DNA of 64,000 nt from Glaucostegus cemiculus (lineage: Eukaryota): the NCBI GenBank assembly GCA_976551045.1, contig CDPCPM010000015.1, positions 3,658,001 to 3,722,000 of the forward strand, read 5' to 3'. This document shows, piece by piece, positions 44,887 to 63,600 of this stretch. The notes under the pieces are model-generated. The model had not been told where the DNA came from. It saw only the letters and a program-made list of their open reading frames with translations, and made no database searches. The position numbers and the translations under genes were made by a program. Within the stretch, counting starts at the first letter, position 1. The number at the start of each line of letters is the position of its first letter.

Positions 44887-45022
44887 TTAAGAGTAGAAGG
44901 TGAGGACACTTTGATGGTTACCACGGATGAGAAGCACTGGTGGCAGATTCCTTGAAAGGATTTCGAGCCAGGCCATGTAGAGTGCATTACACACGGCCCC
45001 TTTACGTGCGATGGGTAAGCTC
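44887..45022 (-). CDS. slc12a2-like: SLC12A last coding exon
   Basis: [47 protein letters not shown]. Confidence 0.95.
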
Positions 45023-48000
45023 CTGAGGAAAGGAGAAAAGGGAAATATGTTCAAGACAGTACAGAACCCAATGAAGTACAGACTTTAATAACAAGCAGGA
45101 GATACAGACATCAAGATCAGAAGCAAGCCCTTCAAGTCTGCTCTGCCATCCAATATGGCTGACCTTCTACCTTAATTCAATATTCCCGTGCTCTCCCCAG
45201 ACCCCTTGGTACCTTTATCATCGAGAAACACATCTACTTCTTAAGTTGGCCTCCAAGACAATAAGTTCCACAGATGTGCTGCTGTTTGAACAAAGAAATT
45301 TCTCCTTATCCCAGTCCCAAATCTACGAAACCTGAACCAGCTTGTTCTAGATACCCAGCCAGGAGAAAAGATCCTCCCAACACCCTTGTTATAAGTTTCA
45401 ATTAGATTCTCCCTCATCCTTCTAAACTGTAATGAATATAAACCTAATTGTCATAATTTCCCTTCATATGGTAGTCACACTTGCTTTATAGCAAGTATAT
45501 ACTTTCGTAGGCAAGGAAAAACTGCACACAATATTCAAAATGTGGTGTCACCAAGACCCTGTATCATTGGGCTGAGATAGTGTTGCTCCTGTACTCAAAT
45601 CTTAGTTTGACAGCCAACTTAACATTTGCCTCATTAACAGCTTGTTGCATCTGCAGGTTTCAGAATTAGATATATTATCACTGACATACGACAAGAAATT
45701 TGTTATTTTGTGGCAGCAGCACAGTGCAAAGACATAAAAATCTATAAATCACAAAAATAAGTAGTACAAAAAAGAAATAATGAGTTTGGTTTCCAATGAC
45801 TGTGCAAGAACACCCACGTCTCTTTGTACATCAACACTTCCCCATCTAACACCATTTAAATAACATAGCTTTTACCTGCCAAAGTGGATAACTTTTCATT
45901 TATCCATGTTATACTGCATTTGTCATGTTTTTATCCATTCACCCAATCCATTTGAGTCAGTCAAGTTTGTTTGCTGAACCCTCACATCATAAAACCACTC
46001 AATTTACTGTTGTTGGTAAACTGCAAAATATTACACCCAAATCATCGATGCATGTTATGAATAGCTGAGGCCTAACTACCAGTCACCAGCTGCCACCTGT
46101 CTGGTTTCAATCCATGCCAAGACCATCCACTTTAATGTTGCACACTAATTTAATAAGTAGGAATTTATCACAAGCTTGCTGAAAATCCAAGTATACCACA
46201 ACTACTGGTTCTCCCTCATCTATTCTACCAGTTACATCTGCAAGAAACACGAGTAGTTTTGTCAAACACAATTTCCCTTCAGAAATCCATGTTGACTTCA
46301 TCTAATCCCATATTTTCCAAGTGTCCTATTATCTCACCCTTTATAATGGCCACTAGCATATTCCTCACCACTGATGTTAGACTCACCAGTCTGCAGTTTG
46401 TTCCTGGTCCAACACCCAGTACCACACCAGCTGATGCCCTCCTGTTCCTTGTACCACACCAGCTGATGCCCTCCTACCTCTAGCACAACACCAGCTGATG
46501 CTTTGTCCCACTCATTTAGTCATTTCACCTCGGGTACCATTTAGTTTGAACAAACAAGGTCTCCATTGCACAGAACTAGGGAAGGATAATGAAGTGTACA
46601 TGGTTTATGTCCTCCTCACACACCTGACACAATCCTTCTCTCAAAGGGAGCACATCCCTCCAGTTTTGTCAAAAGGACCAAGGGAGCCGAGGTCTTAGGA
46701 CTTACATCACTATGAGGCTGGCAGAGCCGGAATGTTCCTGTAGCAGCTCATTCAGTCGTATCTGTCGCTGGGTCTGGAATTCAAAATGAACAGTGAGGCC
46801 GTGATGGTGAAAAAGGAAACATCTGAAAATCATAAATCATCAAATGACCAGAGCTCAGACCTTCTCCATGAACATTTCCAGGTCATGGTCTGAAATTTTC
46901 TGTGCCATATCCGTGTTTATTGCTGTCTCCCCTTTCAAGTGTTCATTACGGAGTCTGTAGGGCTCGATCAGCTCATCAAAGGCTTTGAGACTGAGTAAGG
47001 AAGCAGAGGCCAACAAAAGGGAAACCAAAGACCAAATCCTCCCCCTGCATCATGCCACTCTGCCCTTATCCCGCATCTTACCCCGCACATGGTTTACCAA
47101 CCCTCTCACACTGTCCCCTCGTCAACTTGTACCATTCAACTCCTTCCACATGTGCATCCCCTCTAACCCCCCCAACATTCCCTACTCCATGTATTCTGCC
47201 CTTCTCCCACTGTACCACCCACAACTCTACCCACACTGCCCACTGACCCCTGTACCACACCCTTCCCTCCACACACACCTGCACCATACTGCCCCTTAAG
47301 TCCTCCCCACGGCCCCCTCTCCCACTGCTTCACACTCTCATATATCTCCCTCCTCTGCCCTTTCCCATTTCTGCAGCACCCTCTCACCCTTTCACTGCAC
47401 CCTCATTACCTTCCCACTGCCCAATTCCCCACCCTCTCACTGTCCCTTTTCACCACCCCTTTACCACCCTGCACTGACCTTTACCCCACACAGCTCCCCA
47501 AAAAAAAAAAACCACCACCACTCCCTTATCTTCTCACTGCTCCTCACGAGACCACGCTGCCCACTTACCTCTCCGCACCGGGTTTACTGTTTATATCCCC
47601 AATGATCACAATGTCCGAAAAGCCGATGCGGAATTTGCTGAGTAATGTTGCCATCCTGTGACACAGAGTTCTGATCAGAGGCAGCTCAAGAACAACCTCC
47701 AGACATTGACCAGAACCATCAGACCATACAACCATAACGTGTAATTATGGGTTGTGTATAAAATCCAATTCAGTTTGCAACAATATGAATATAGGTCAAG
47801 CCACAACAGTTAGCAGCTTCAACGGTGCAGTGACCTTATTCATGAATTTGCCTCCAAGCTTAGTGTTTCTGTGGTGCAGTGATCCCATCATAGTGATGGT
47901 ATCACTGTGATCACTGCAGTGCAGTGATACCATCATAGCTCCTTGGCTCCATGTTAAGCCCAACAGTTAGAAATTCCCCAAAAGATCACACACACTGGAC

Positions 48001-63000: not shown

Positions 63001-63600
63001 AAATTATACATGGTTTATAATTTACTTCAGGAAATGATGCAACAGGCACCTTCCTTCCTTCTGTAGCATCTGTTCCATATCATTCATTCCCCACACTCTG
63101 GGACCTCAGACTGTAGAATTCACCTCTCAGGGTCTTCTCTTCCTTCTTATTTCGGTAGGCTTGGATCAAGTCTAGGCTAATCAAAATTATTGCTATCTAA
63201 TGGCCAATCCCATGTACCACCAGAGTCCTGATCAGACGCTTTGGTGAAATGACCCAACCAGAAGATCCTGAAATGGATCTGAAGTTTAATTTCACACCAT
63301 TTTCAAATACACTCACCTCTAAATGAAGCAATCCAAACAGCTTGTTATCAACAATTAGTGGAGGAAAGGGATTAGGGGTAACATCATTTCCTGTGGCAAT
63401 ACCCATGTAACATTCATACACCTTGTATCCGTAGCAGTTCAGTCTGAACAACATAAACCAATGTGGACTGACTAACCAATCAGGATGAATGCCAGTGCGA
63501 TAAAAAATGTTAGAAGATAGCCTCTCAAAGGCTCTTTATTCTTCCCATAACCAACTGAAAAGAAGTGGAGTCCAGGGTAAATCTTGTCCTTACACAGCGC
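44887..63600 (-). CDS. slc12a2-like: Na-K-2Cl cotransporter (SLC12A1/2 family, NKCC1-like but divergent), 3' part, 15 exons; continues beyond window end
   Basis: Exon sizes 124/102/156/100/112/141/107/80/../112/87/../68 and phases match recalled SLC12A2 exons 12-27; motifs [38 protein letters not shown]-terminus [12 protein letters not shown] (NKCC, not NCC VLTFYCQ); frame open throughout. Confidence 0.92.
45090..46400 (-). mobile_element. Decayed CR1-clade LINE fragments
   Basis: [38 protein letters not shown] (RT motif, ORF 46107-46301). Confidence 0.7.
46419..46502. repeat. 32-nt tandem repeat, about 2.6 copies
   Basis: gtaccacaccagctgatgccctcct units. Confidence 0.8.
46706..46773 (-). 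CDS. slc12a2-like: SLC12A exon
   Basis: [23 protein letters not shown]. Confidence 0.95.
46861..46990 (-). CDS. slc12a2-like: SLC12A exon
   Basis: [43 protein letters not shown]. Confidence 0.92.
47035..47560. repeat. C-rich low-complexity intron tract (G-rich on transcribed - strand)
   Basis: Recurrent cccactg(t/c)acc units. Confidence 0.7.
47569..47655 (-). CDS. slc12a2-like: SLC12A exon
   Basis: [29 protein letters not shown]. Confidence 0.95.
48635..48746 (-). CDS. slc12a2-like: SLC12A exon
   Basis: [38 protein letters not shown]. Confidence 0.94.
49120..49425. mobile_element. Penelope-derived inverted-repeat element (arms about 49165-49252 and 49332-49419)
   Basis: atgctggaggaactc..ccttcatctggactgg / ccagtccagatgaaggg..cctccagcat. 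Confidence 0.75.
49582..49698 (-). CDS. slc12a2-like: SLC12A exon
   Basis: [39 protein letters not shown]; acceptor position less certain than the 3' half. Confidence 0.85.
50120..50410 (-). mobile_element. CR1-clade LINE 3' end
   Basis: Same tail as the 4519 and 23745 copies. Confidence 0.8.
50726..50798. repeat. 21-nt minisatellite, 3.5 copies
   Basis: CAGCACAGCA(T/G)CCGCTGGCTA x3 + CAGCACAGCA. Confidence 0.9.
51054..51113 (-). CDS. slc12a2-like: SLC12A symmetric 60-nt exon, NKCC1 exon-21-like (QPLL)
   Basis: tttgtttttcatctgtag|AA AAT CAG..ACA G|gtacca; [20 protein letters not shown]; phase 1-1. Confidence 0.7.
51340..52755 (+). mobile_element. Decayed Penelope-like element: GIY-YIG endonuclease remnant (about 51810-52115) flanked by oppositely oriented terminal repeats
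   Basis: Broken translation [60 protein letters not shown]; repeats 'gctggaaa..ctcagca.gtcag.cagcatct' at 51355 and 51665, and their reverse complements at about 52480-52535 and 52700-52750. Confidence 0.75.
52432..52468 (+). ncRNA. Minimal hammerhead-ribozyme motif, core intact
   Basis: AGTT-CTGAAGA-A-GGGT(CTCCA)ACCT-GAAA-CG-TT-GACT; stem I AGTT/GACT, stem II GGGT/ACCT; lies downstream of a Penelope GIY-YIG remnant. Confidence 0.65.
53122..53305. repeat. Degenerate minisatellite, about 40-nt unit
   Basis: Repeated cacccccacaaat.cc..atacaatgag.ggcatt.gt. Confidence 0.7.
53498..53577 (-). CDS. slc12a2-like: SLC12A exon
   Basis: [26 protein letters not shown]. Confidence 0.93.
54301..54407 (-). 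CDS. slc12a2-like: SLC12A exon
   Basis: [36 protein letters not shown]. Confidence 0.95.
55045..55212. mobile_element. Degenerate Penelope-derived fold-back element
   Basis: gaaatctgaaataaaaacagaaaacgttggaaat..caggtcaggcagca / agatgcttcctgggctgctgagagttcccagcattttctgcttttattt. Confidence 0.55.
55235..55375 (-). CDS. slc12a2-like: SLC12A exon
   Basis: [47 protein letters not shown]. Confidence 0.93.
55488..55599 (-). CDS. slc12a2-like: SLC12A exon
   Basis: [37 protein letters not shown]. Confidence 0.95.
56229..56530 (+). mobile_element. Young tRNA-derived V-SINE with A/T-rich tail
   Basis: Box A TAGCGTAGCGG, box-B-like GGCTCAATTTCC, V core ggagtttgtatgttctccc..gggtttcctccgggtgctccggtttcctcccaca; CpGs retained. 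Confidence 0.85.
57310..57650 (-). mobile_element. V-SINE (reverse)
   Basis: gggatgtgggag..ggaaacccatgtggtcacagggagaatctacaaactccacacaga. Confidence 0.7.
57834..57933 (-). CDS. slc12a2-like: SLC12A exon
   Basis: [34 protein letters not shown]. Confidence 0.95.
58135..58460 (-). mobile_element. V-SINE (reverse)
   Basis: gatgtgggaggaaaacagagcgtccagggaaacc..gattgaaccagggtc..actagctgcgccac. Confidence 0.7.
59489..59644 (-). CDS. slc12a2-like: SLC12A exon (TM11-12)
   Basis: [52 protein letters not shown]. Confidence 0.95.
60785..62712 (+). mobile_element. Rex1-type LINE 3' fragment (host), split by the nested insertion
   Basis: [32 protein letters not shown] | [40 protein letters not shown]; tail gtgacaataataaacc. 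Confidence 0.85.
60960..62336 (-). mobile_element. 5'-truncated Rex1/Babar-type LINE (RT C-terminal half, frameshifted), nested inside another element
   Basis: [92 protein letters not shown]; tail gtgacaataaaactgattctga. Confidence 0.9.
62730..62831 (-). CDS. slc12a2-like: SLC12A exon (TM10)
   Basis: [34 protein letters not shown]. Confidence 0.95.
63477..63600 (-). CDS. slc12a2-like: SLC12A exon (NKCC1 exon-12 equivalent)
   Basis: [41 protein letters not shown]; tag|..G|gttagt. Confidence 0.93.

Follow-up and report, generated by a model that had tools for sequence, protein, structure and literature searches.

A probable third NKCC cotransporter gene of jawed vertebrates beside a fibrillin gene in the ray Glaucostegus cemiculus

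In teaching, the NKCC cotransporters are presented as the products of two genes, NKCC1 (SLC12A2) and NKCC2 (SLC12A1). A stretch of 64,000 nucleotides from the genome of Glaucostegus cemiculus (G000:C15:3658001-3722000, the whole of which is called the window here) carries exons of an NKCC-type gene, the window gene, which a first-pass annotation had put forward as a third vertebrate paralog. Is it one of the two known genes, a late copy of one of them, or a third ancient member, which would alter the history of the family? We consider it highly probable that the window gene is an intact third NKCC, likely produced by whole-genome duplication at the base of the jawed vertebrates and predicted to encode a kinase-activated Na-K-2Cl cotransporter.

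The gene model was built from the window and the adjoining stretches, with ray proteins as guides. It lies on the minus strand, as do all the motifs quoted in the first-pass annotation, and comprises 26 coding exons across 49 kb that encode 1036 residues and include no internal stop. Every exon (26 of 26) is in frame, and GT-AG borders were found in 25 of 25 introns. The interval originally assigned to the gene, 44887..63600, proved to hold exons 12-26; the gene is larger, its exons 1-11 lying outside the window and its start about 30 kb past the window end (Table 1). Intron phases equal those of the same genome's NKCC1 model at all shared junctions, so the model is not due to chance. The Pfam domains AA_permease_N, AA_permease and SLC12 occur in this order on a ray ortholog (P0216) and a coelacanth ortholog (P0020), and a profile search of the genome gave PF03522 matches on the window exons. 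Exon 20 likely corresponds to the 48-nt exon of NKCC1 (exon 21 in human). A genome search with exon 24 at E<=1 returned exon 24 itself and no second close copy of the gene.

Genome searches rate the best candidates only, so that all counts of loci given here are lower bounds. One exon of the window gene matched at least four loci, on contigs C15 (that of the window), C14, C166 and C26, and the SLC12 family profile matched several exons at each. At 93-96% identity to the NKCC1 of sharks, skates and rays, the C14 gene is identified as the NKCC1 of the ray genome; it groups with that of rays and skates. The C166 gene groups as NKCC2 in the tree described below, which identifies it as the genome's NKCC2, and two copies of its exon 4 were found; duplicated exon-4 cassettes are a known NKCC2 trait, and mammals have three. 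The C26 gene has His at the position of human Y383, the fibrillin search gave no match on its contig, and it is taken as NCC. The window protein is 68.5% identical to the NKCC1 and 61.8% to the NKCC2 of the same genome. The last fibrillin exon matched at least three loci, on C15, C14 and C166, each tail-to-tail with an NKCC. Separate fibrillin-linked NKCC1 and NKCC2 loci, which the first-pass annotation had proposed to look for, are thus present. At the window locus the fibrillin ends at 37440 on the plus strand, 7.4 kb from the NKCC stop, and the tail-to-tail arrangement noticed earlier was borne out.

Two features of the NKCC2 locus were observed in passing. Its exon-4 copies are at G000:C166:2567201-2567842 (L046), where only two were found, and its last exon (G000:C166:2490151-2490310, L038) shifts frame at an A run just before the final residues, which is probably a homopolymer assembly error.

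Protein database searches supplied the best 120 of 592 and the best 120 of 4238 proteins, to which cluster members were added. With proteins shorter than 120 residues excluded, a tree of 226 rows split into 117 NKCC1, 86 NKCC2 and 21 rows of a third clade that includes the window gene, with two rows outside. Subsets of 26, 20 and 17 rows, rooted on a single long NCC row, were analysed under LG+G4 (the first two) and LG+C20 (the 17-row tree). Support for the third clade was 100/100 in all three, beside 100/99-100 for NKCC1 and 99-100/98-99 for NKCC2. Against the one outgroup row, the window gene was placed in the NKCC clade, with NKCC1 and lamprey (96/90, 97/93 and 95/93). It does not nest in the NKCC1 clade, where the C14 gene occupies that place, and it lies outside the NKCC2 clade and is without exon-4 cassettes, the C166 gene occupying the NKCC2 place. 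Orthologs of the window gene bear the automatic database names 'SLC12A2-like' or SLC12A2, which imply NKCC1, and these names, together with its greater identity to NKCC1 than to NKCC2, could suggest a fast NKCC1 duplicate made within cartilaginous fish, or simply the NKCC1 of the genome. We give this explanation next to no credence: the C14 gene has the identity to shark, skate and ray NKCC1 given above, orthologs of the window gene occur in lobe-finned vertebrates, and forcing the ray genes into chondrichthyan NKCC1 cost 162 log-likelihood units and was rejected by the approximately unbiased (AU) test (p-AU 2e-75), which refutes the explanation under that model.

In all best trees the third clade is the sister of NKCC1 (90/77, 86/83 and 91/92), with a lamprey fragment outside, and this sisterhood is the most likely placement on the aligned proteins. 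Each of the three NKCC clades includes a ray and lobe-finned vertebrates, and the duplication therefore predates the split between cartilaginous and bony fish. The favoured topology agrees with the branching order published for fibrillins, FBN1 first and then FBN2 with FBN3, in the available part of PMC3306419.

Besides the window gene, the third clade holds proteins from 14 named species. These are rays of the stingray group (Mobula hypostoma, M. birostris, Hemitrygon and Hypanus), the coelacanth Latimeria, the lungfish Protopterus, the salamanders Pleurodeles and Ambystoma, and six early-branching frogs (Ascaphus, Discoglossus, Bombina, Spea, Pelobates fuscus and Pelodytes); examples are XP_062888086.1 (Mobula), XP_043910677.1 (Protopterus), XP_069505715.1 (Ambystoma) and UniRef H3BA36 (Latimeria). 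The window protein is 90-92% identical to the Mobula, Hemitrygon and Hypanus orthologs. All three NKCC types occur together in the coelacanth, in Discoglossus and in Bombina. Among the matches listed, no third-clade protein came from a shark, skate, chimaera, ray-finned fish, caecilian, Xenopus, neobatrachian frog or amniote, and NKCC1 or NKCC2 was retrieved for every one of these groups. This distribution suggests that the third copy may have been lost repeatedly, with the limit that unannotated, short or broken copies would escape the listed matches. Retention in cartilaginous fish, as first proposed, thus holds for batoid rays; it is not general among the chondrichthyans listed, and it extends to the coelacanth, lungfish and amphibians. 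The part in elasmobranch osmoregulation suggested at first is a hypothetical one. We dropped the idea of a link to electroreception or urea retention, since sharks show both traits and had no copy among the matches listed.

The coelacanth protein P0020 (UniRef H3BA36), labelled SLC12A2, is the third paralog and not NKCC1, and its region of transmembrane segment 6 (TM6) looks mis-modelled. In the salamander orthologs P0005 and P0220, 350-400 residues precede the phospho-segment, giving far longer N-termini than in rays or frogs.

The surroundings of the window gene bear on how the third copy arose. A cortexin-1-like gene lies upstream of it (Table 1), and a second cortexin is 184 kb upstream of NKCC1 on C14. 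Eight of the nine cluster members of the C15 cortexin are named cortexin-1-like, and the longest contig of one member equals in size the Hemitrygon contig with the third-copy ortholog. About 235 kb before the window, towards the 5' side of the fibrillin, the opposite strand carries a ceramide synthase exon. In human, we take FBN3 to be flanked by CTXN1 and CERS4, CTXN3 to precede SLC12A2 and CTXN2 to precede SLC12A1. The neighbours of the window gene (cortexin-1-like, third-type fibrillin and ceramide synthase) match this human FBN3 block. A fibrillin tree of 20 rows was made from the last nine exons. In it the C166 fibrillin joins FBN1 (100/100), and the window fibrillin joins catshark, chimaera, caecilian and cobra proteins (99/99), of which the caecilian and chimaera ones are named 'fibrillin-2-like', apart from FBN1 and from the mammalian FBN2 clade (97/99). 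The C14 fibrillin has no resolved place, its closest row being vole FBN2 (78%). The earlier view of an FBN3-type neighbour stands in so far as the window fibrillin is neither FBN1 nor within mammalian FBN2; the name FBN3 itself is given by exclusion and by neighbours. Parts of the block persist where the NKCC was not seen, as window-type fibrillin is present in catshark and chimaera and cortexin in sharks. Block copies thus include fibrillin on C14, C15 and C166 and cortexin on two of these (C166 ends 38 kb past its gene). The proposed whole-genome-duplication origin agrees with these paralogous neighbours on separate contigs and with a duplication older than the cartilaginous-bony fish split. 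A cortexin-NKCC-fibrillin block would have been copied three ways, the window copy being most likely the NKCC1 sister and having been lost several times.

Cortexin-family genes also occur at G000:C436:54977-55132 and G000:C351:2615320-2615487, making four in the genome. C351 also has TLC-domain exons and no NKCC or fibrillin match, and might represent a fourth block copy.

What the window gene does can be predicted from residues with assigned roles. Human numbering was transferred via the lynx sequence and checked against a PDB alignment. We assume the listed residues to form the Na, K and Cl sites and RFxV to be the SPAK dock. The window protein retains L297-M303, R307, M382, Y383, P496, A497, T499, G500, A610, S613, S614 and Y686 in its ion and loop-diuretic site. 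Kept regulatory residues are T203, T207, T212, T217, T230, F213, R348, K1061, K1145, R1148, Y1211 and R801, and the N-terminal RFQV is present. Nearly all filled rows of the clade keep L297-M303, M382, Y383, P496, A497, T499, A610, S613, S614, Y686, R348, R801, K1145 and R1148; position 212 is Ser in four third-clade rows, and position K1061 is Asn in seven. The loop-diuretic contacts, phospho-sites and ATP-site residue R801 follow the accessible text of PMC11876703. The window protein is likely a WNK-SPAK-activated, bumetanide-sensitive Na-K-2Cl cotransporter, because its ion-site, phospho-threonine and ATP-site residues are kept. A switch of substrate to K-independent Na-Cl cotransport, as in NCC or SLC12A10, would fit the motifs ELNTIAP and FSCF, common to NCC and NKCC2, and an A498S change in TM6. 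We judge such a switch very unlikely, given Tyr at the Y383 position in all 20 filled rows of the third clade (His in the NCC of the same genome), Ala at 497 (Ser in NCC) and the place of the window gene inside the NKCC clade.

For an Na-K-2Cl cotransporter of this kind, WNK-activated SPAK/OSR1 would dock on the N-terminal RFQV and phosphorylate the equivalents of T212, T217 and T230. So activated, the transporter would take up ions electroneutrally and in a loop-diuretic-sensitive manner, probably across the basolateral membrane. The available part of PMC7727275 describes a C-terminal LL that sends NKCC1 to the basolateral side, and a disputed role of exon 21. The LL is kept in 19 of 19 filled third-clade rows and occurs also in 32 NKCC2 rows; with exon 21 disputed, basolateral sorting is thus a weak prediction. 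In human NKCC1, R1064 binds pT212 and R1064A attenuates flux, according to the portion of PMC11876703 at hand. At this position all 20 filled rows of the third clade have Thr, Ala or Ser, and Arg stands in 115 of 115 NKCC1 and 80 of 82 NKCC2 rows. Its loss would weaken the pT212 anchor, and activation may be lower or shifted relative to NKCC1. A structure prediction for the ray ortholog P0216 (mean predicted local distance difference test score, pLDDT, 37.8) was left unused.

Sequence divergence is uneven along the window protein. Identity to the NKCC1 of the same genome falls from 77% in the membrane part to 63% in the C-terminal domain, where the conserved PW is replaced, and the C-terminal divergence noticed at first was thus evident. 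In 60-residue blocks over positions 141-980, 10 of 14 are nearer NKCC1 and 3 are within 1.2 points; the remaining block, 921-980, one of the most divergent, lies 5 points nearer NKCC2. At 33 diagnostic columns the protein resembles NKCC1 in 17, NKCC2 in eight and neither in eight. The Cys of FSCF is also in NCC and lamprey and is thus ancestral. On these comparisons the protein hardly resembles a mosaic, most blocks being nearer NKCC1; the mixture first noticed is more readily taken as retention of ancestral states. Between the window protein and Mobula, differences fall at 18 of 481 invariant columns (3.7%) and 79 of 526 variable ones (15%; p=4e-10). Such a distribution is the pattern of purifying selection, although the third copy in rays changes about twice as fast as NKCC1 does in a comparable species pair (90% vs 96% identity). 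No counterpart of the NKCC1 exon at G000:C14:16417350-16417490 was detected in intron 19 of the window gene or in the C15 region.

Several observations weigh against an ancient, functional third NKCC from whole-genome duplication. Three alternatives in all to its sisterhood with NKCC1 survive (third clade with NKCC2, p-AU 0.08; outside both, 0.07-0.085), and the NKCC root depends on one long NCC row. The same genome's NKCC2 is also without an R1064 equivalent, so the loss of this residue need not matter. The fibrillin tree had no row named FBN3, and the place of the C14 fibrillin in it is not settled. Tim44, an expected neighbour, was not found in the genome search, nor was dUTPase, such a search being uninformative for split genes. 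Bombina and Discoglossus carry the third copy and NKCC1 on contigs of equal size, as might be expected if a real third paralog had come from segmental duplication of the block. The same could be argued from the number of neighbouring genes checked, just three to four, and from the FBN2/FBN3 split, dated to tetrapods in the available text of PMC3306419; three fibrillins in a ray would place that split before tetrapods, earlier than this source proposed. We hold a segmental origin to be quite improbable, as cortexin, NKCC and fibrillin are each multi-copy on separate contigs, and the NKCC split is older than the divergence of rays and tetrapods and, in the best trees, younger than that of lamprey. 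Human 5q23, 15q21 and 19p13, presumably one paralogon, count on the same side. At 484 invariant columns the ray copies depart 38-43 times, lungfish and salamanders 24-29 and frogs 25-39, and the changes in rays include G150D, A370V and D412F. Together with a ray stem branch of 0.24-0.29 (0.07-0.08 for chondrichthyan NKCC1), the NKCC1 exon not found and the apparent absence from many lineages among the matches listed, they would suit a real ohnolog that is redundant in rays, under relaxed selection and weakly expressed or heading for loss. This is unlikely in our view, since none of the 26 exons or their splice sites is damaged and, at 90% identity to the stingray-group copies, changes avoid invariant columns.

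An intact, ancient third NKCC can be set beside the known systems. The window gene shares with NKCC1 the exon phases, a single exon 4, the small exon-21-like exon, the RFQV, the phospho-threonines, the C-terminal LL, the checked ion-site residues, an upstream cortexin and the tail-to-tail fibrillin. It differs from NKCC1 in its overall sequence, its short N-terminus, its own clade and contig, the lost R1064 equivalent and the C14 exon without detectable counterpart. With NKCC2 it shares the family, the ion sites, a fibrillin neighbour and the ELNTIAP and FSCF motifs, likely ancestral states. Unlike NKCC2, to which its identity is lower still, it has one exon 4 (C166 has two) and retains the exon-21-like exon, which NKCC2 lacks according to the available part of PMC7727275. 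SLC12A10 (NCC2) offers a precedent for an SLC12 paralog patchily kept in non-mammalian vertebrates (accessible parts of PMC11381001 and PMC11145369), but it belongs to the K-independent NCC branch, whereas the window gene lies in the NKCC branch with a Tyr383 equivalent.

In the text available from PMC11145369 (2024) and the review PMC11381001 (2024), the SLC12 members are given as a1-a9 plus a10, and the Na-coupled members listed in the accessible part of a red stingray kidney study (PMC9396271) are nkcc1, nkcc2 and ncc. The available portions of PMC8608846, PMC13607439 and PMC12284397 make no mention of a third vertebrate NKCC, and the literature searched, mostly outside subscription journals, yielded no description of one or of its orthologs as a separate gene. 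It thus seems somewhat probable that the third NKCC is undescribed so far. Primers, antibodies and database names labelled 'NKCC1' may conflate two genes in rays, lungfish, coelacanth and axolotl, and the third NKCC would be a natural variant for studying how phosphorylation gates these drug targets. More tentatively, and with real doubt, one may imagine that jawed vertebrates began with three NKCCs, of which the third works with its own phospho-activation setting (the R1064 anchor being lost) in a dedicated epithelial job, which would explain its retention for more than 400 million years in rays, coelacanth, lungfish, salamanders and early frogs and its loss in sharks, teleosts and amniotes.

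Table 1 Coordinates of the window gene and its neighbours (window positions unless a contig is given)
Feature	Position	Strand or placement	Basis
Neighbouring fibrillin, last exon	37045..37440	+	fibrillin searches; upstream exons span first 37 kb of window
Exon 26, last coding, carries stop	44887..45022	-	spliced model
Exon 25; with end of exon 24 retains K1145 and R1148 equivalents	46706..46773	-	model and alignment
Exon 24, divergent, conserved PW replaced	46861..46990	-	model and alignment
Exon 23	47569..47655	-	spliced model
Exon 22; K1061 equivalent retained, R1064 equivalent is Thr890	48635..48746	-	model and alignment
Exon 21	49582..49698	-	spliced model
Exon 20, 60 nt, phase 1-1; QPLL present, acidic cluster absent	51054..51113	-	model and alignment
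Exon 19	53498..53577	-	spliced model
Exon 18	54301..54407	-	spliced model
Exon 17	55235..55375	-	spliced model
Exon 16; R801 (ATP site) equivalent retained	55488..55599	-	model and alignment
Exon 15	57834..57933	-	spliced model
Exon 14, last membrane helices	59489..59644	-	spliced model
Exon 13; Y686 equivalent retained	62730..62831	-	model and alignment
Exon 12	63477..63600	-	spliced model
Exons 1-11: RFQV motif, phospho-threonine segment, most of membrane domain	G000:C15:3722232-3751851, outside window	-	spliced model
Cortexin-1-like gene	G000:C15:3772945-3773226	21 kb upstream of window gene	genome search

The sequence INWQ was tried as a marker of the third clade and ruled out, as it is also in 17 of 117 NKCC1 rows. 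These 17 rows with the W-to-Q change of the third clade (among P0012-P0031 and P0071) are mostly from frogs, with a cobra, and the change in them is apparently convergent. Intron 13 of the window gene holds LINE-type (long interspersed nuclear element) reverse transcriptase fragments in more than one frame (window 61137-62322, minus strand).

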